From the UHGV virus genome UHGV-1440165: a stretch of 64,000 nucleotides of DNA; one strand, written 5' to 3'. The translations under genes were made by a program, and so were the position numbers. The stretch comes from a virus. Below the pieces are notes generated by a model, which ran no database searches, was not told where the DNA came from, and was given only the letters and a program-made list of their open reading frames with translations. Shown here piece by piece: positions 12,803 through 22,865 of the stretch. Each line of letters opens with the position of its first letter. Within the stretch, counting starts at the first letter, position 1.

Positions 12803-13126
12803 TTATTTGCGCAGGGCAACCACGAATTCAGCGAGTTCACCCATGGTCGGGTCATCGCCTTTACTGCCCAGCCAGCCGTCGTCTATTTCGACCTGAAACT
12901 CTTCTTCTAGTTCCATTACGATTTCGATAGCATCCAGTTCATCGCCGCCGAGGTCTTTCTTGGTGCGGAGGCCAGCCAGTTTGTCCAGGGCGTCTTCGTT
13001 TTGAGATGCCACGTCGTCCAGCAGTTTGCGCTTGTCATCGTCGCGCCACAGATCCATATTCAGATTCTCTGTAGCGTACTGAGCCAGGTGTCGCATCACC
13101 TCAACATATGTCGGTTTACTGCTCAT
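12803..13126 (-). CDS. Acyl carrier protein-like protein lacking the phosphopantetheine-attachment serine
   Basis: 107 aa; DLGGDELDAIEIVMELEEEFQVEIDD closely matches the ACP helix-II region [20 protein letters not shown], but the DSL serine codon is GAA (Glu); ATG with GGAGA RBS. Confidence 0.6.
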   Translation of the reverse strand: MSSKPTYVEVMRHLAQYATENLNMDLWRDDDKRKLLDDVASQNEDALDKLAGLRTKKDLGGDELDAIEIVMELEEEFQVEIDDGWLGSKGDDPTMGELAEFVVALRK

Positions 13127-13168: not shown

Positions 13169-15370
13169 TTAGATTTTGATCTCTTTCTCTGCCAGTTCGG
13201 CAGTGACCTTGTACTTCACGCCATCCACTTCAACTTCCATGGTTGACTCTTCCAGGTCGAGGTCGGTGAACCAGCCATGGCCAGCAACGATACCATACAC
13301 CACTTTAGACAGCGTCTTGTTCAGGGCGCGGACTTCAGTGATGGCCGCCTTGGCAGCAGCGTCGATCCAGTTTTCGATCAGCTGTTTCTGTACGGCTTCA
13401 GGCACAGCAGTAATAGCCGGGGACTTCACGAATGCGTCGTATTCTTTCAGTGCATTGGCGATGAACATATCACCCGCATTGAGAGCCTTTTTATCAGCAA
13501 TCTTCTTCTGTACCGCAGCGATGGACGGCAGAGAAGACGCCCCGGCGATCTTAACGTTCAGCTCACGGCTCATGTAGACGTCCGTGGAGTCCTTCAGCTC
13601 GGTCTTCGGTGAGAAGCCATAATCGCGGATACCAACACTAGACAGGTATTCTGCGGCCGCAGCGCCGTACTGAATAGCCAGACCTTTGGCATTACCCTTA
13701 CCAACCAGGGCGTCGCGATAGAACTTCAGTACCTTCTGCTTGCCTTTCAGGGCTTCCAGGCGAACGTTGTCGGCAAAGAACTGTGCAGCACTGATGTTCT
13801 TGACCATCGCACGGTTGACCAGCGGTACGCTTTCCAGGTTCAGAATGAACACTTCCGGACCAACGAACACGTGGACGCCCATTTCGATCAACTTCTGCAC
13901 AACTTCGATATCAGCCTTGAACGGCAGGGTCTTCACATTGATGATGCCGTCTTTGACGATGGTGTAGTTGCGCCACTGGAATGTGTCCAATTCTTCGGGT
14001 AGACCGAACTTCTTCTGAGCGAATTCGGGCACCGCCACAGTTCCATGCTGGATTGTACGCACACTGATGTTCGGGCGCTCAGAGTTATAGACCAGGTCGC
14101 TGATTGAGATCACGCCCAGATCGTTAGCAGGTTCAAACGACGGTGTCCACTCTTCGTGCTCAGCCAGCTTGAGAGCGAGGGCTTTACGCTCTTCTTTGGA
14201 CTTGGCGTTCGCGATTTCTTCCGCCAGCTTGTCTTCGGTATCATCGGCTTTCTGCACAGTACCGCGACCAATGCTCTTGTAGGAGAACATCGGGTGCTTG
14301 GTGGCAACAGACACGCCAGCTTCGGCCAGGTACGTCAGCACATCAACGACAGTGGTCGCATCTTCAGCCGGAACCATATTGTAGTCGATACCGTCCACGC
14401 CGCGCAGCTGATCATCAACGATGGCCTGGGTCAGATCAACTTTGATGTTGGAGTAGTCCTGCTTGGTGAAGCAGTTGCTGTACTGTTTGATGAAGCGGAC
14501 GTCGCCCGTTTTCTTCAGCGCAGCCCACACCAGGTCGGCGTCCATGATGTGTACGCCGTAGAACGCCAGCACGTATGCTGCCTGGATGTCCGTCAGCGCA
14601 TCAAGCTGGTCGATCATGTTAGGGTTGACGACCCACAGCTTCGTGACGCTCTCAGGGATGCTCACGTGGCCGATAGGATGGTCTTCATCCGGCTGTACCG
14701 CCAGCACGGTTGCTACGCCGTTTTCAACGTAGATGGCGTGAGTGTACACCACAGGAACGTCAACACGAACCTTCGGCACCGAGGACTTCAACACGTTTTC
14801 CAGCTCAGTCTGATATTCAGTCTGTCCTTCGGCGAACACGTGAGTCGCGCCGGAACGCTCGGACATCTGGGCCAGGAGTTCGCGGTTACAGTACCAGCCG
14901 TATTCGATAAAGGTGATGTTATCGAAAACAAATGGCAAGGTTTCGGCGACGGCCAGGATTTCATTGGAGCGCCAGCAGTTGTCATAACCATCGGTCATGA
15001 ACGCCAGGTTGTTGACGTAGCCGGGTTTCTTCAGGCTACGCGCAGTATCTACCGCGAGACCCAGGGGTTCGACGAAGCCAGTGCAACCGGATGGTTGCAG
15101 GAAGCGGTCGATCAGTTTGTTCAGCTCGCTCAGGTCAGACGCAGCACTGACCTGGCGGCCAGCGAACACAGTACCAAAGTCGCCACGGGATGAGAAGTAC
15201 AGGAGGCTCACTGTGTCTTCCGGTTTCACCAGGGAAGGCAGGTTCTCCTTCAGGTGCTTACGGACTTCAGGGAGCGCCCGGTACATGGAACCGGAAATGT
15301 CCACAACGATTACATGGTTGGACGGGGCAGCAGTCGCAACCGCATTCTTAAACTCCAGGGATTCAATCAT
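13169..15370 (-). CDS. von Willebrand factor A (vWA) domain protein
   Basis: MIDAS-type motif VVDISGSM near the N-terminus and later TDGYDN; about 733 aa from ATG at 15370 (MIESLEF...). Track start 15433 overlaps a small upstream ORF. Confidence 0.65.
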   Translation of the reverse strand: MIESLEFKNAVATAAPSNHVIVVDISGSMYRALPEVRKHLKENLPSLVKPEDTVSLLYFSSRGDFGTVFAGRQVSAASDLSELNKLIDRFLQPSGCTGFVEPLGLAVDTARSLKKPGYVNNLAFMTDGYDNCWRSNEILAVAETLPFVFDNITFIEYGWYCNRELLAQMSERSGATHVFAEGQTEYQTELENVLKSSVPKVRVDVPVVYTHAIYVENGVATVLAVQPDEDHPIGHVSIPESVTKLWVVNPNMIDQLDALTDIQAAYVLAFYGVHIMDADLVWAALKKTGDVRFIKQYSNCFTKQDYSNIKVDLTQAIVDDQLRGVDGIDYNMVPAEDATTVVDVLTYLAEAGVSVATKHPMFSYKSIGRGTVQKADDTEDKLAEEIANAKSKEERKALALKLAEHEEWTPSFEPANDLGVISISDLVYNSERPNISVRTIQHGTVAVPEFAQKKFGLPEELDTFQWRNYTIVKDGIINVKTLPFKADIEVVQKLIEMGVHVFVGPEVFILNLESVPLVNRAMVKNISAAQFFADNVRLEALKGKQKVLKFYRDALVGKGNAKGLAIQYGAAAAEYLSSVGIRDYGFSPKTELKDSTDVYMSRELNVKIAGASSLPSIAAVQKKIADKKALNAGDMFIANALKEYDAFVKSPAITAVPEAVQKQLIENWIDAAAKAAITEVRALNKTLSKVVYGIVAGHGWFTDLDLEESTMEVEVDGVKYKVTAELAEKEIKI

Positions 15371-15533
15371 CGTTATTGCCTTCTTCAGGGTTGTCATCGG
15401 CCTCACCTTCCGGATTGACCAGCATGTGTTCAACGAATTCGCGATTCAGCTCAATCTGGCTCATCAGCGCATCCGTCGGAGTAAAGCGGCGGTCGAGGTT
15501 ATCGACACCCGCACGTTTAAATGGTTTGGACAT
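15363..15533 (-). CDS. Small hypothetical ORF (56 aa) between NAMPT-like and vWA genes
   Basis: ATG at 15533 with GAGG RBS; its TGA stop overlaps the vWA start (ATGATTGA); acidic C-terminus. Not in ORF track (under 60 aa). Confidence 0.4.
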   Translation of the reverse strand: MSKPFKRAGVDNLDRRFTPTDALMSQIELNREFVEHMLVNPEGEADDNPEEGNNDD

Positions 15534-15543
15534 TCCTCGACCT

Positions 15544-15567
15544 CAAAACAGGGGAGTTTCCTCCCCT
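15544..15567 (-). terminator. Putative intrinsic terminator after the NAMPT-like gene
   Basis: AGGGGAG-TTTC-CTCCCCT hairpin followed on the minus strand by GTTTTG. Confidence 0.5.
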
Positions 15568-15574
15568 TCAGTTA

Positions 15575-17239
15575 TTAGATTTGTGAGGCCAGTTCTGCCA
15601 CCAGAGGAGCAGCACGAACACGCGCATCTTCCAGAGTCTGAGTGTTGAAGAACTTGCCATCACGGTACACCAGTTGGTGTTGGTTGTCGGCGTCTTGCAC
15701 CTGATCAAAGGTGATGCCGTCAACCAACACTAGTTTACCCTGAGAGTCTTTAATGACTTTAAGGAAACCACGCGCAGACTTTTTAGTCCCGCCTTTGTCG
15801 GTCTTCGGCTCTTTGAAGATCTCGCGGAATTCACCGTTCACCTTACCAGCCGTCGCTTTCACTGCCGTTCCAGTACTGTCACGGGTGTTCATCTGGTAGG
15901 TGTAGGAACCAATACCGAAGACCACGTTAATGGAAGCGAAGTTCCGGCCAGCCAGACGACCAAAGATCTGGTCTTCACGTGCCAATGTGATAGAGTCACC
16001 GTAGATCAGACCGATGTGATCGTCCAACAGGAAGTGGCCAGTCTCAGTTTGAGTACCGCCAAAGATCTCCCACAGGCGCTGAATAGAGCCGACTGCTTCA
16101 GAACGGCTGATGATATTACTGTCGTCTGCCATCAGAGAGTTGATCGTACCTTCGCCTGTGATCAGGTGATAGGTGTTCGTCTCTTCGATGTGGATGACTT
16201 CGGTGCTGCTGGACACGCCGCTGATGTTCAGCATAGCGCGGTCTTTGAACCCCTCGATGCGGTAGCCGCCGACGATGTGAACTGGGTCGCCAGAGTCAGG
16301 GCGGATCACGACTTTGCCGTTGCGTGCCATGATAATGTCTTTCAGGCGAGGGAGATAGTCGTCGATGACCTGCCAATAGTCCCACGCATCCGACACAATG
16401 CTGACGATGCCATCAGGATACACGTCCTGCACCAGGCGACGGAAGGTTTCGAATTCTCCATTCTTCGTACCCATGCACATCACGGCGTGTTCGGTGGCTG
16501 CAACGGAGCCAGCAACGACATAGTCTTCATCGATATCCGCGCCGTAATACTCTTCAACGAAGTCCAGGGCAGGGTTGGTGTCAGTGCCTTTGAAGAACAC
16601 CAGATGGCCAGAACCGGAAGACGCCGCGTCATGCCATCCGCTCATACCACGGAAGGAGAAGTCGTGGCCTTGGTAATCGATGAACCAATGGTCCGGTGAC
16701 ACGCCTGTGGCGATAGCGGCTTTCACCATCAGTGCCTTGTAATGCAGGGCGATGGTGGCGTTCGTCATGGGCTTCCAGATCTCAGAGCTGAACACAGTCT
16801 CCAGATAGTTGGTCAGCCAGTAGAACTCCGGCAAGGTGTTGAACATCACATACACCGGAACGCCATACGGGCACATGGTGCCTTCGGGTAGAGCACGGAC
16901 TTCGATAGGCAGATAACCGAGGTCATGCAGGGCTTCGATATGCTCTGTGCCAACACGACCTGGACCCAGTACTTTGTTCATGCGACGGGCATACTTCTTC
17001 AACACCTTGGCCTTCGGGCGCTGGAAGAACGCTTCGTCAAACAGTTCGTGGAACCAGGTCATGAAACCCTGGATGCCCCAGACCACCACGCCGTTCTTCG
17101 GCAGGTGAGAGTTGAATAATTTGTTGGAACGCGGAGTCCCGTTGGAGAACACCAGCTCACTACCTTCAGGGAACTGATAGATGTGCCCTGATTTGTAGAA
17201 GTCGATTGCATGAATTGGGTCTAAGTGGCGCATGCTCAT
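15575..17239 (-). CDS. nadV: Nicotinamide phosphoribosyltransferase-family protein (NadV/NAMPT-like)
   Basis: 554 aa; NAMPT-type N-terminus with the DFYKSGH motif; ATG start overlaps the stop of the upstream Prs-like gene by 4 nt. Confidence 0.8.
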   Translation of the reverse strand: MSMRHLDPIHAIDFYKSGHIYQFPEGSELVFSNGTPRSNKLFNSHLPKNGVVVWGIQGFMTWFHELFDEAFFQRPKAKVLKKYARRMNKVLGPGRVGTEHIEALHDLGYLPIEVRALPEGTMCPYGVPVYVMFNTLPEFYWLTNYLETVFSSEIWKPMTNATIALHYKALMVKAAIATGVSPDHWFIDYQGHDFSFRGMSGWHDAASSGSGHLVFFKGTDTNPALDFVEEYYGADIDEDYVVAGSVAATEHAVMCMGTKNGEFETFRRLVQDVYPDGIVSIVSDAWDYWQVIDDYLPRLKDIIMARNGKVVIRPDSGDPVHIVGGYRIEGFKDRAMLNISGVSSSTEVIHIEETNTYHLITGEGTINSLMADDSNIISRSEAVGSIQRLWEIFGGTQTETGHFLLDDHIGLIYGDSITLAREDQIFGRLAGRNFASINVVFGIGSYTYQMNTRDSTGTAVKATAGKVNGEFREIFKEPKTDKGGTKKSARGFLKVIKDSQGKLVLVDGITFDQVQDADNQHQLVYRDGKFFNTQTLEDARVRAAPLVAELASQI

Positions 17240-18090
17240 TTTACACGTCCTGTATTTTCAGTTTTGAAAGGAAGACCGTCGGCGGTGATGTTCTCCCACC
17301 AGACAGTGTCGGCATACACAGCATCGTAGATCCCGTCGAAAACAGAGAGACCTTTGCTGAAGATGCCATGGGTAACGAAGAGCGTCATGTGCTTAGGCTT
17401 GTGCTTCTGAAGCTCTTTACCCAGCTCAACAAACGTGCGCCCACCGTCGCAGATATCATCAACCACAACCAGATAGCGGTCTTTGATCAGTTCAGGGTTT
17501 GTAATACTCACCCCAATGATTTCACCAGTCTTGGTGTCACGGTTCTTGTGTCCGTAGACAACAGGAACGCCATCCAATGACAGGCTGAGGGTTTCGGTCT
17601 TCTTCGCCGCGCCGCCGTCAGGGGCTACCAGCACAGCATTGTTCCCACGGATGAACCAGCCCAGATACTGGCGCACGATGTGATCTTGTGGGACCACATG
17701 GACGTTGTTGATCAGGGAAGACACAACATGGCTGTGAGGGTCTTTGATCGCCACGCGGTCAAAGTTCATGTTGTTGATGAACTCAGCCGCCCACTTCACG
17801 GACAGAGGCTCGCCGAAGTCGCAATGGCGGTCCTGGCGAGCATACGGGAAGTAAGGGATATACGCATGGAAGGTAGTCAGACGGTCCACGTTACCCAGGC
17901 CGCGCACGGCGTTTACCAGAAGCGCCAGCTCAATGAAGTCGGCTGATGATTTGATGTGAGCATCAATCACCACGTTCTGGACGTGACCGACAGGGATGCC
18001 AGCCTTTTGGATCTTGATATGTTCCTCACCACCTGGGAAGGTGAAGTGCTTGTAGAACACATCTTGGTCGTTCAATTTCAAACGAAACAT
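17236..18090 (-). CDS. Ribose-phosphate pyrophosphokinase-family protein (Prs-like)
   Basis: 284 aa; type I phosphoribosyltransferase/PRPP-binding motif VVVDDICDGGRT; ATG start with GAGG RBS. Confidence 0.75.
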   Translation of the reverse strand: MFRLKLNDQDVFYKHFTFPGGEEHIKIQKAGIPVGHVQNVVIDAHIKSSADFIELALLVNAVRGLGNVDRLTTFHAYIPYFPYARQDRHCDFGEPLSVKWAAEFINNMNFDRVAIKDPHSHVVSSLINNVHVVPQDHIVRQYLGWFIRGNNAVLVAPDGGAAKKTETLSLSLDGVPVVYGHKNRDTKTGEIIGVSITNPELIKDRYLVVVDDICDGGRTFVELGKELQKHKPKHMTLFVTHGIFSKGLSVFDGIYDAVYADTVWWENITADGLPFKTENTGRVK

Positions 18091-18200
18091 AATGTAGCCT
18101 CATGGTGTATTGTACAGCCGTATTATACTGTGATGCACAAATTGAAACGCCCAGCAAATATACCGGGCGTTATTGTTATTGAAGGAGTTTGCTGATTCAG

Positions 18201-18995
18201 TTATTTGTAGGAATCGACGATGGCCTTGAACAGCGCGTCCTTCTGATCAGTTGGGATATAATTCGCCGGAGCCAGCAAGAGTCGCCTTATGTGTTCACAG
18301 CAGTCTTTCTGTTCTTCAGCGCTCATCTTATCCCAGGTGACAGCATTGAAGTAGATCCCGCCCTTGTAAGCCGCCATGCACGTCTTGGCCAGGCGAACAA
18401 CGAGTTCGGAATACAGCTCATCGGGATGCATGTATGAACGCAAATATGCTTCCACTCCAGCTTGGGCTGTGCTGTTGTGTAGATCGTTGTATCGTTCATT
18501 GTCGGTGCGAACCAAGCCAGCAACGAACCCTCGACTCGGATCTCGTGGATGTCGGAACACGAAAGACTGGCCGTGGCCTTGTAGGAATTCCGCCCCAGCC
18601 ATCTGATTTATCGTCCCTCTTTCGGAGACATACTGGAAGATGTCTATCTTCGCATCGGCGGTAGCCACCTCCAGCATCTGCTTCTCTACGACGGCGCGGT
18701 AGGCTTCCAGTTCCCACAGCTGGGAAAAGGTCTTGTCATAGGCCAGCTTCTTACCCAACTCTTCATCAAAGTTGGCGGGGTCGATAGAGGTGGAGCTATT
18801 CTTACCCCAAACGACAAAGCCGTTGTCCATCTTGAAGTGGCAGGTTATAACGCGATGGCCGCCGACTTCACGGTCTTCATAGATGACTTCGGCAATGTGG
18901 GACTTCAGAAGATCTGGGGACAGCCTCAGACCTTCTCGAACAGATTTACCCTTCAGTTCCACACCTTTGGGTTCATTACGATTGATGGTTGCCAT
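18201..18995 (-). CDS. Hypothetical protein
   Basis: 264 aa ORF, ATG start; no recognisable motif. Confidence 0.5.
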   Translation of the reverse strand: MATINRNEPKGVELKGKSVREGLRLSPDLLKSHIAEVIYEDREVGGHRVITCHFKMDNGFVVWGKNSSTSIDPANFDEELGKKLAYDKTFSQLWELEAYRAVVEKQMLEVATADAKIDIFQYVSERGTINQMAGAEFLQGHGQSFVFRHPRDPSRGFVAGLVRTDNERYNDLHNSTAQAGVEAYLRSYMHPDELYSELVVRLAKTCMAAYKGGIYFNAVTWDKMSAEEQKDCCEHIRRLLLAPANYIPTDQKDALFKAIVDSYK

Positions 18996-21611: not shown

Positions 21612-22865
21612 TTATTCAGGTTTCTTCAAACGATCAAGGAGATTGACAGAGCTGCGACCGAGCACAACTTCATCACAGCGCTTCTTGTAAGCACCACTTC
21701 CGTCATAACCGACCTTACCCCGAGGCTTATCTCCCCGTTGAACGGCTTCTACGCAGCGGGTGTACTTGCTCAGTTCACAGAACATGTTCTCCAGCTGCAT
21801 GACGTTCATACACTGATCTTCCGGGGCTTCAGCCGACCAGAACTGCTCCCGGACATAACCATAGTCCCCGTAAATCGAATCCTGGTGGTCACGCAGCCAG
21901 AAGATACATTCTTCATGCGTCATGCCGTCCTTGTTCAGGAACAACAGGTCGATCCCAGCGCGGCAACCCGGTCCAGCGATAGTGAAATGGTTCTCACTGA
22001 ACGGATACTCAGGAATGTACGTGAAGTCCACCCAGATCTGATAGGCCAGGAATGGACCCAAGCCTTCGATTTCGTCGTACATGGCCTGGTAGACTTCATC
22101 CGGAGATTCGCATTCCAGCAGCCGCTCGAAGTAATCAGGGTGCTTGTTGACGAATGCCCTCAGAGAACGGATGACGCGCATCGGCATGTACGGTTCCCAA
22201 CCCTCAATGGTGTAGAAGTCCGGCTCTGCTTCAGCAATTGCCTTCGCTTCTTTATAATCCATATTCTGGGTTGAACCGTCTTTGCAGATCAGATTCACCA
22301 TCATCCCACCGAAGCGCTGCTCCTTGTGGTTGACAACCAGCTCAGGGAAAGCCAGGCATTGCTTCAGGCCGCCCGTGTTGAAAGCATTGGTGAAGACTTT
22401 GCCGCCGTTGGCCTCGAACTTCTGTAAACGTTCGCGGGTCGCGTCAAGGTTGATCTTGGCGAAGTCGGAGATCGTCATCGCGCCGCCGATAGCCTGGATC
22501 GGATCCCAGAGGTTAAACATGCGGAACAACACGCAGTTGAACATCTTATCCGGCATAGACAGCGCATCGTTGTTAACGATGTTGTTGATTAGGTTGAGAG
22601 ACTGCCTGTCGTGCTCTCTCCGGACGTTGCAGAACTTGACCTGCCGTAGTATGGCATTATCCGTCCAAGGAGCAGGAAGACGCTGGACGTCCTTCTTAAC
22701 GTGGATCTTGTATCGCTCGCTCATCCATTCGTAAGAAAGACGACGATGAAACGGACTGAGCACGGGCTTGGCGGACTTGATTTTATCTTCGCGGACACCA
22801 CAATAAGGGATGTCACGGGCTTTATCTTTCATGGTATCCTCACAGAATACGAAAACAGAGGCCAT
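21612..22865 (-). CDS. Hypothetical protein (417 aa)
   Basis: ATG at 22865 (alternative ATG at 22832 with GAGGA RBS); no recognisable motif. Confidence 0.5.
   Translation of the reverse strand: MASVFVFCEDTMKDKARDIPYCGVREDKIKSAKPVLSPFHRRLSYEWMSERYKIHVKKDVQRLPAPWTDNAILRQVKFCNVRREHDRQSLNLINNIVNNDALSMPDKMFNCVLFRMFNLWDPIQAIGGAMTISDFAKINLDATRERLQKFEANGGKVFTNAFNTGGLKQCLAFPELVVNHKEQRFGGMMVNLICKDGSTQNMDYKEAKAIAEAEPDFYTIEGWEPYMPMRVIRSLRAFVNKHPDYFERLLECESPDEVYQAMYDEIEGLGPFLAYQIWVDFTYIPEYPFSENHFTIAGPGCRAGIDLLFLNKDGMTHEECIFWLRDHQDSIYGDYGYVREQFWSAEAPEDQCMNVMQLENMFCELSKYTRCVEAVQRGDKPRGKVGYDGSGAYKKRCDEVVLGRSSVNLLDRLKKPE

Follow-up and report, generated by a model that had tools for sequence, protein, structure and literature searches.

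NARP1 and NARP2 are phage pathways that restore nicotinamide adenine dinucleotide (NAD+). In NARP1, the Prs-like enzyme Adps pyrophosphorylates ADP-ribose (ADPR), yielding ADPR pyrophosphate (ADPR-PP), and Namat, the Nampt-like enzyme, joins ADPR-PP with nicotinamide to give NAD+ (10.1101/2024.02.11.579819). NARP2 consists of a KVP40-type Nampt together with Nmnat; 94% of the phages with a KVP40-type Nampt carry their own Nmnat, and no phage with both NARP1 and NARP2 was found (Osterman et al., 10.1101/2024.02.11.579819). According to the same work, NARP1 is carried by 859 phages (4.3%), and the Adps clade is distinct from cellular Prs, with 97% of its members adjoining a Namat; the genetics were worked out in Bas63 and FADO, the biochemistry with the SPbetaL1 proteins (10.1101/2024.02.11.579819). 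Here, we analyse a gene pair in the UHGV virus genome UHGV-1440165, of which a stretch of 64,000 nucleotides (the window) is considered. A first-pass annotation had put forward the Adps/Namat route as a candidate for this pair. Clade membership of the Prs-like protein, its scores below the Prs cut-offs, the Namat clamp, sequence identities and tabulated orthologues support this proposal, and the pair is very probably a NARP1 operon with an NAD+-rebuilding function. We call its genes adps and namat.

The specificity of Namat has been explained in a 2026 structural paper (PMC12774641). Namat combines the Nampt catalytic core with an adenine "selectivity clamp" that is absent from Nampt. The clamp is built from a variable loop (SCL) and a helix (SCH) with the signature GSX-phi-X-phi-X-phi-TRD, in which the X positions are "most often" aromatic. 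The loop is longer than in Nampt, and its stacking position is occupied by Arg, Lys or Tyr. Clamp residues govern the selectivity for ADPR-PP and leave the chemistry with phosphoribosyl pyrophosphate (PRPP) unaffected. In SPbetaL1 Namat, the single mutation Y396K reduces activity by ~1.3-1.7-fold, double clamp mutants by up to 16-fold (PMC12774641). It is for homologues of the window pair that NARP1 activity has been demonstrated, namely in Bas63, SPbetaL1, FADO, DyoEdafos, Vibrio phage Gary and Paenibacillus.

By homology to these systems, the pair would act after an NAD+-depleting defence of the SIR2, TIR or SEFIR type (for example Thoeris I, DSR1/2 or SIR2-HerA) has split NAD+ into ADPR and nicotinamide. 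Adps (284 aa) would use ATP to pyrophosphorylate the terminal ribose of ADPR, and Namat (554 aa) would exchange the pyrophosphate of the resulting ADPR-PP for nicotinamide. NAD+ would thus be rebuilt without a nicotinamide mononucleotide (NMN) intermediate and without an NMN adenylyltransferase (NMNAT). Both proteins would be co-translated through an ATGA overlap of their genes. The genes make up a cassette of ~2.6 kb, complete in itself, which is flanked by two hairpins and placed behind a conserved TATAAT hexamer. We infer both this chemistry and the anti-defence phenotype from homology.

Identity of the two enzymes

The two open reading frames (ORFs) of the first-pass annotation and their 4-nt overlap are reproduced exactly by the ORF list and the junction sequence (Table 1). 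The junction reads gta aaA TGA gc, with AGGA located 8 nt 5' of the namat ATG, and through the ATGA overlap the two genes may be translationally coupled. Other pairs overlap by 4 nt (mycobacteriophage BigCheese) or by 1 nt (SPbetaL1). Coupling is not universal, since Bas63, FADO and ECGD1 have gaps of 37-75 nt between the two genes (45 nt in Bas63). With 855 nt and 1665 nt, adps and namat are exactly as long as the orthologous genes of Gloob and maane, and we therefore regard both as intact. They are adjacent on the same strand, inside the ten-gene distance that the discovery paper requires. Adps is matched by the Pfam families Pribosyltran and Pribosyltran_N and by phrog_619, "ribose-phosphate pyrophosphokinase" (5e-91), Namat by NAPRTase (3e-31) and by phrog_448, "nicotinamide phosphoribosyl transferase" (1e-192). 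These family assignments are far beyond chance for both ORFs. The motifs that had been noticed earlier are indeed in place: the PRPP-binding motif in the 284-aa ORF (LVVVDDICDGGRT / VVVDDICDGGRT) and DFYKSGH at aa 13-19 of the 554-aa ORF.

For Namat, the best solved relatives are 9w5x/9w5w (E 1e-134), whose printed sequence matches SPbetaL1 gp191 (Namat), while human and rodent NAMPT follow at ~1e-49. In an 11-sequence alignment, window Namat is 45-49% identical to the Namats of Bas63, SPbetaL1, FADO, ICP1 and BigCheese, and 27-30% identical to three NARP2 Nampts (KVP40 species, Aeh1 and Slopekvirus; the KVP40 species was represented by Vibrio phage V09, Schizotequatrovirus KVP40). All catalytic-core residues of the nicotinamide/NMN site are identical in this alignment (D13, Y15, F189, S190, R192, D215, A242, R306, D308, G360, D361, G390, S391, R399 and D400). 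The clamp helix of the window protein, GSYTYQMNTRD, has 11 residues with Y at position 3 (the F392 equivalent), T, Q and N at the phi positions and the TRD end, and agrees with the Namat signature at 10 of 11 positions. It compares with GSFTYQYNTRD in SPbetaL1 and FADO and GSYTYQYMTRD in Bas63, whereas NARP2 Nampts have GGGLLQxx[DT]RD. The clamp loop, TPRSNKLFNSHLPKNG, places K40 at the stacking position of SPbetaL1 R40 and resembles the Bas63 loop TPRSDKWFNSPLAIDG, which has Lys there. Its length exceeds that of the SPbetaL1 loop by 4 residues and that of the loop in KVP40-type Nampt by ~9.

A tblastn search of 50,697 phage records with window Namat gave a bimodal distribution of identities across 2,047 phage records. 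The large group, at 36-47% identity, includes Felixounavirus, Staphylococcus K-like phages, ICP1, Pakpunavirus and Bacillus and mycobacteriophages; T4-like "nadV" genes form a separate group at 24-28%. Seven of these loci were inspected (ECGD1, BigCheese, ICP1, AP1, V09, Aeh1 and KLB1). In the higher-identity group, an annotated Prs-like gene lies directly upstream of namat in ECGD1 and BigCheese, and in the unannotated ICP1 locus a 304-aa ORF at this same place is assigned to the Adps clade by a neighbour-joining tree. In the lower-identity group, no Prs-like gene was found near Nampt in the loci of V09, Aeh1 and KLB1. Aeromonas phage AP1 (MT713136, 2492-4018) encodes a Namat-like protein that is 37-40% identical to Namats and whose clamp helix, GSWGFLKNASRD, is atypical and longer by one residue; within 2.5 kb of it, no Prs-like gene was found. 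The AP1 protein could represent an intermediate, or a family member with a different partner.

For Adps, identity is 33-36% to Bas63 Adps, 33% to SPbetaL1, 27% to FADO and 24% to E. coli Prs. On the curated NCBIfam model TIGR01251 (cut-off 113 bits), window Adps scores 106.5, close to the validated SPbetaL1 Adps with 106.0, and E. coli Prs scores 422.7. On the other curated Prs (PRK) models, with cut-offs of 296-536 bits, window Adps stays at or below ~95 throughout, compared to 532.6 for E. coli Prs. The window protein thus reaches the curated cut-off for canonical Prs on none of the NCBIfam models. In the neighbour-joining tree, built from 6 cellular Prs and 21 Prs-like proteins that are associated with a Namat, the Namat-associated proteins, window Adps among them, split from cellular Prs in 100 of 100 bootstraps. 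Window Adps groups with PVPSE1 and phiR1-37 in a subclade of Gram-negative phages that holds the Bas63 Adps validated in vivo. The catalytic Lys is kept: K182 (GHKNRD) aligns with SPbetaL1 K162 (GHKQRN), and the SPbetaL1 Adps mutant K162A is inactive (10.1101/2024.02.11.579819). The phosphate-binding loop differs, with DDICDGGRT in the window and DDLSSFGGT in SPbetaL1.

Among the characterised pairs, Bas63 / JohannRWettstein NARP1 (genes 79-80) shares with the window the order of a Prs-like gene followed by a Nampt-like gene, the Gram-negative Adps subclade, Lys at the clamp-loop stacking position, an insertion after the DSGDP motif and identical catalytic residues, at 33-36% identity for Adps and 44-46% for Namat. 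Unlike the window pair, its genes do not overlap, SCH position 7 is Tyr and not Met, Trp and not Leu follows the clamp-loop Lys, and its insertion is ~40 aa longer. SPbetaL1 NARP1 (genes 190-191; structures 9w5w/9w5x) resembles the window in Namat (47% identity), the NAD+-contacting core residues, the catalytic Lys of Adps, the gene overlap and the sub-threshold Prs score. Its Namat differs in having 491 aa and no insertion, a shorter clamp loop in which Arg40 stacks directly, and Tyr at SCH position 7. KVP40 NARP2 (Nampt/NadV and Nmnat/NatV) has the Nampt-superfamily fold, the catalytic core residues and the purpose of restoring NAD+ in common with the window pair. In contrast to the window pair, the KVP40-type system has GGGLLQQLDRD without aromatics, a short clamp loop and no adjacent Prs-like gene, and KVP40 NARP2 requires Nmnat.

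All 71 ORFs called across the window were scanned against Pfam (E<=1e-3), and no CTP_transf_like/NMNAT, Nudix, Macro, PnuC or RyR domain was found in these 64 kb of a ~158-kb genome. The earlier statement that no NMN adenylyltransferase is visible nearby thus holds for the window. Since the 71 ORFs lack the NMNAT and Macro families, neither NARP2 nor NARP1-AP is supported. The Nampt identity of 27-30%, the Namat-type clamp in place of GGGLLQ and the lack of an Nmnat among the 71 ORFs speak against NARP2. NARP1-AP, the arrangement of Vibrio phage Gary with the Macro-domain phosphatase Adpp, was rejected on the Pfam scan, which found no Macro-domain Adpp; the flanks of the pair carry PF13876, von Willebrand A and one small ORF without Pfam match. 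The window is similar to NARP1-AP and to the DyoEdafos RyDEP locus in having an accessory gene for handling ADPR or nucleotide signals beside adps/namat. A Macro domain as in NARP1-AP was not found within two genes of the pair.

Several points weigh against the identification as NARP1. A published structural determinant of Adps substrate choice was looked for and none was found. The PDB holds no solved Adps structure, and the best matches of the window protein there are ordinary Prs, no better than 1e-17. Because of this, substrate-pocket reasoning is not possible for Adps; with neither a structure nor a pocket rule at hand, the Adps call is drawn from phylogeny and curated cut-offs, and the preference for ADPR over ribose-5-phosphate is predicted from phylogeny. 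A validated Namat also makes NMN from PRPP in vitro (10.1101/2024.02.11.579819; PMC12774641), so that the window enzyme may produce some NMN as well. SCH position 7, where SPbetaL1 Y396 contacts the adenine, is Met in window Namat, and Leu follows the clamp-loop Lys where Bas63 has Trp. The literature on Ackermannviridae NARP1, the phage family of the window, yielded no biochemical or genetic test, and the NMNAT search covered less than half of the genome, as given above. The Tyr-to-Met change in the clamp and the lack of a direct determinant for Adps substrate choice are the main residual doubts.

A rival reading is a classical salvage boost, in which a true PRPP synthetase and a true Nampt/NadV make NMN and host NadR or PncC/NadD finish NAD+ in a NARP2-like manner. 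We consider this unlikely. Both proteins do belong to the Prs and Nampt superfamilies, and public annotations name them so; the host has NMN-using enzymes, as established for the E. coli pathway, and the PRPP-to-NMN activity that validated Namat keeps in vitro is about half the level of human NAMPT (PMC12774641). However, the window protein falls into the Adps and not the Prs clade and scores under every Prs cut-off, and the SPbetaL1 Adps homologue made no PRPP (10.1101/2024.02.11.579819). Window Namat has the Namat clamp instead of the Nampt-type GGGLLQ, and its identity to experimentally verified KVP40-type Nampt is only 27-30%. Rescue by Bas63 was independent of host pncC and nadR (10.1101/2024.02.11.579819), and the Nmnat that accompanies nearly all KVP40-type Nampts was not found in the window. 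The first-pass annotation had considered the choice between the two routes undecidable from sequence. With the literature of 2024-2026 and comparative data this holds in small part, as sequence now largely separates NARP1 from Prs plus NadV. The alignment it had proposed, against Prs/NadV and Adps/Namat with pocket residues, gives a Namat-type core and clamp and membership in the Adps clade.

The clamp substitutions raise a further possibility, that Namat has an altered specificity or is weakened. The Tyr-to-Met change, the Leu that follows the clamp-loop Lys and an inserted stretch of ~58 aa would then shift the donor preference, and the pair would be NARP1-like but not equivalent; the enzyme might be dual for PRPP and ADPR-PP or use another ADPR derivative as donor. 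The Met that replaces the adenine-stacking Tyr396 is invariant in the three Ackermannviridae genera Agtrevirus, Kuttervirus and Taipeivirus (8 of 8 orthologues compared). The insertion (aa ~326-383), absent from the crystallised SPbetaL1 enzyme and presumably close to the entrance of the active site, lies just after the ribose-binding DSGDP motif and before the GD(S/A) contact to the AMP phosphate, and it is the clamp residues that set ADPR-PP selectivity while PRPP chemistry is untouched (PMC12774641). Nevertheless, we rate such a change of function as very unlikely. The remaining 10 of 11 SCH positions match, and Met can pack against an adenine ring. Because single clamp mutants lose only 1.3-1.7-fold activity, we treat Met at position 7, which deviates from the consensus, as a caveat and not as a failure, and the X positions are only "most often" aromatic (PMC12774641). 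The insertion is also present in ECGD1 and, in a longer form, in Bas63 Namat, which is functional in vivo; for this reason it is not new, and we rejected it as a novelty. NARP1 with Namat acting on ADPR-PP thus stays the reading that we prefer.

Source phage and boundaries of the cassette

By megablast, the 2.8-kb region around the pair matches 89 phage records, all of Ackermannviridae type, at 91-95% identity, with Salmonella, Klebsiella, Shigella, Dickeya and Enterobacter among the hosts. Compared over a 12-kb stretch around the pair, Agtrevirus genomes, for instance ChubbyThor, SKML-39 and MK-13, reach no more than ~90% identity. From this, the window is by sequence comparison an Agtrevirus-like Ackermannviridae phage that is identical to no deposited genome. 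A scan of IMG/VR for further relatives gave 6 loci only, all from isolate genomes already found. The Ackermannviridae pairs of EspM4VN (LC373201_00156/157), 0507-KN2-1, Ag3, Menlow, maane and Gloob are 91-99% identical to the window pair in amino acid sequence, and the Ackermannviridae NARP1 pairs have in common with it the lengths of the genes, the ATGA overlap, the motifs of the clamp and the backbone genes on either side.

NARP1 is already known in the phage family of the window, with orthologues of 92-99% identity tabulated in the discovery paper and the link drawn in a review. EspM4VN, whose region is 92% identical to that of the window at the nucleotide level, is listed in the discovery paper with LC373201_00156 as "Namat within 10 genes: Yes" (Osterman et al., 10.1101/2024.02.11.579819) and with LC373201_00157 as an "Adps-associated" Namat (10.1101/2024.02.11.579819). 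The Adps table also contains the orthologues of Klebsiella phage 0507-KN2-1 and Shigella phage Ag3, again marked "Namat within 10 genes: Yes" (10.1101/2024.02.11.579819). In a comparative paper on Agtrevirus, 8 of 14 genomes carry the pair, which is filed there under "nucleotide metabolism", and a review of the Ackermannviridae has already linked it to evasion of NAD+ depletion, citing Osterman.

Table 1. Features of the adps/namat locus and of neighbouring genes (positions in the window)
Feature	Position	Strand	Size or sequence	Basis or remark
adps (ADP-ribose pyrophosphate synthetase homologue, Prs family)	17236..18090	(-)	284 aa	ORF list, Pfam, PHROGs
namat (nicotinamide ADP-ribose transferase homologue, Nampt family)	15575..17239	(-)	554 aa	ORF list, Pfam, PHROGs
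ATGA stop/start overlap of adps and namat	17236..17239	(-)	4 nt	sequence reading
Terminator-like hairpin between upstream gene and adps	18146..18171	(-)	11 bp, then UUUCAAUUU	centroid fold, z -2.5; kept in CBA120
-10-like hexamer, left edge of the NARP1 unit	18122..18127	(-)	TATAAT	31 nt 5' of adps start; aligns with CBA120 element
Terminator-like GC-rich hairpin, right edge of the NARP1 unit	15544..15567	(-)	7 bp, AGGGGAG-GAAA-CUCCCCU + GUUUUG	7 nt past namat stop; fold -15.4 kcal/mol
Backbone ORF, right flank of the NARP1 indel	15363..15533	(-)	56 aa	ORF list; CBA120 orthologue directly after Acb4-like gene
Adjacent upstream gene: Acb4-family domain (aa ~27-112), beta/alpha middle domain, C-terminal RyDEP-type RyR/R12 remnant	18201..18995	(-)	264 aa	
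Protein with N-terminal von Willebrand A domain	13169..15433	(-)	754 aa	phrog_2426; downstream of cassette
Acyl-carrier-protein homologue	12803..13126	(-)		PP-binding, phrog_4154; downstream of cassette
5-hydroxymethyldeoxyuridine (5-hmdU) DNA kinase	21612..22865	(-)		PF18723, 1e-82

The borders of the cassette become visible in the alignment with CBA120, a Kuttervirus without NARP1 (Table 1). In the window, the 11-bp hairpin, the TATAAT hexamer and a GAGG ribosome-binding site precede adps in this order. CBA120 has the same hairpin and TATAAT, directly followed by a ribosome-binding site and the start of the 56-aa gene. Because CBA120 joins the TATAAT element directly to the 56-aa gene, NARP1 can be delimited as a presence/absence unit of ~2.6 kb (~15541-18121). 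By this comparison, the cassette is a clean insertion, with a conserved promoter-like element on one side and the following backbone gene on the other. No canonical -35 element was found at the TATAAT hexamer; a sigma-70 promoter scan called neither flanking element and an intrinsic terminator consensus scan called neither hairpin. The right-hand hairpin is statistically not unusual (z -1.5). As the consensus scans called none, the promoter and terminator functions are putative. Further downstream, the acyl-carrier-protein homologue and the von Willebrand A protein are conserved backbone genes of the Ackermannviridae.

Loss of the cassette has left traces in related phages. Dickeya phage Kamild retains the last 110 codons of namat, and Escherichia phage RPN242 a namat trace of ~40 codons. 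In Shigella phage Ag3, both genes are joined in a fusion ORF, Adps(1-222)::Namat(226-554) (FJ373894_00125). The fusion is explained by an in-frame deletion of 872 nt between two FVE-coding sites, equivalent to Adps aa 219-221 and Namat aa 226-228 in the window. Without the Adps C-terminus and the N-terminal half of Namat, the fusion protein is probably inactive. This fusion has also seeded the misleading PHROG family phrog_12872.

The patchy distribution bears on the view that adps and namat are general auxiliary genes of nucleotide metabolism, which would raise PRPP for the heavy nucleotide demand of a phage with hypermodified hmdU DNA and would take no part in counter-defence. The "nucleotide metabolism" label given in the Agtrevirus comparison speaks for this view, as does the position of the cassette amid replication and nucleotide-modification genes such as the 5-hmdU DNA kinase gene. 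We regard it as scarcely credible. The arguments raised against a salvage boost apply here in the same way. Moreover, the cassette is dispensable and patchy, with 8 of 14 Agtrevirus genomes carrying it and remnants or absence in Kamild, RPN242 and CBA120, which is typical of accessory counter-defence genes, and it adjoins a gene with an Acb4-family anti-CBASS domain.

Elsewhere in the window, the 5-hmdU DNA kinase is typical of the hypermodified-thymidine pathway of the family. One ORF between 21612 and 38312 matches the YAcAr / YpsA-related SLOG domain (PF10686, 1.2e-11). Klebsiella phage KLB1 has a protein annotated with an MCP/YpsA-like domain (541-1122 of the fetched locus) ~1.3 kb upstream of nadV. 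The structural-gene block (ORFs 38395-63726) contains a GIY-YIG homing-endonuclease match and a weak Intein_splicing match (4e-4).

The Acb4-family neighbour

The family behind PF13876 is Acb4, whose members are anti-CBASS sponges for cyclic dinucleotides, and 8 of 8 homologues tested bound 3'3'-cGAMP (Chang et al., 10.1101/2024.12.30.630793). Fusions of one sponge to another are on record as Acb4-Tad2 and Acb4-Sequestin. Proteins with RyR/R12 domains hydrolyse or sequester 2'/3' cyclic ADP-ribose (cADPR) according to the RyDEP study, and in DyoEdafos this activity feeds NARP1 (10.64898/2026.05.28.727677). The gene directly upstream of adps brings the two families together. Its PF13876 match covers aa 27-101 above the gathering score, with an Acb4/dsRBD-like fold, and an AlphaFold2 model from 33 homologues reaches a pLDDT of 86. 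With 39% identity (1e-61), the protein is related to "H6", the homologue from a Salmonella phage in the RyDEP study (10.64898/2026.05.28.727677). A sequence profile did not align it to 9e4w, so that the Acb4 ligand-binding residues are not mappable, and its function as a sponge is predicted from family membership.

The RyR part of this neighbour is degraded. It lacks the 38-aa ligand-binding core (…SHESW…GWVYG…K(T/E)HP…) that bears the equivalents of H75, W78 and H100, and keeps only the KD (D117) position. Because this core segment is gone, PF02026 gives no match in the window protein even at E<=10, whereas the orthologue of the Kuttervirus maane matches at 5.4e-10. Unlike in the DyoEdafos RyDEP locus, neither catalysis nor cADPR binding can be assumed for the window protein, and its RyR partner domain is probably defunct or repurposed. 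A three-gene pathway from cADPR through ADPR to NAD+ with a RyDEP-type neighbour was considered and rejected for the window, as the RyR core is deleted. In maane, where a full RyR-domain neighbour of the RyDEP type lies beside NARP1, the three-gene arrangement does hold. Two forms occur among the 44 homologue clusters of the neighbour: short ones of 241-270 aa in which the core is deleted, and full Acb4-RyR proteins of 283-296 aa.

The slot adjoining NARP1 is variable in the family. The core-deleted Acb4-like gene of the window corresponds to the full Acb4-RyR gene in maane, which has the order [Acb4-RyR][adps][namat], and to an 80-aa zinc-finger gene in Gloob. In Menlow, by comparison, a short Acb4-like form is found downstream of namat ([adps][namat][short form]), and CBA120 has the short form and no NARP1. 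We read the locus as a counter-defence hotspot in which an Acb4-type module stands beside NARP1. One could go further and see a modular island against both nucleotide signalling and NAD+ depletion, in which the core-less Acb4 protein, whose middle and C-terminal module is still conserved and well folded, has gained another ligand or a new partner and cooperates with Adps and Namat, while the Tyr-to-Met change tunes the donor specificity of Namat. The linkage of the Acb4-like gene to NARP1 in two orders, upstream in Agtrevirus and Kuttervirus and downstream in Taipeivirus, hints at more than chance co-location. CBA120, which retains the Acb4-like gene without NARP1, counts against it, and we hold this extension to be unlikely.

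NARP1 in Ackermannviridae phages

With the identification of the pair as NARP1, the two genes can be given a functional name with confidence; in nearly all public records of Ackermannviridae they are still called "ribose-phosphate pyrophosphokinase" and "nicotinamide phosphoribosyltransferase". The additions made here are modest and introduce no new principle: the boundaries of the cassette and its linkage to a gene for an Acb4 domain fused to a degraded RyR. Many proposals for biocontrol and therapy, directed at Salmonella, E. coli O157, Shigella and Klebsiella, build on phages of the genera Kuttervirus, Agtrevirus and Taipeivirus. Carriage of NARP1 by an isolate should predict infection of strains with Thoeris, DSR, SIR2-HerA and similar NAD+-depleting defences. 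Together with its Acb4-family neighbour, the presence/absence cassette would mark a counter-defence hotspot that is worth checking when such phages are chosen or engineered.

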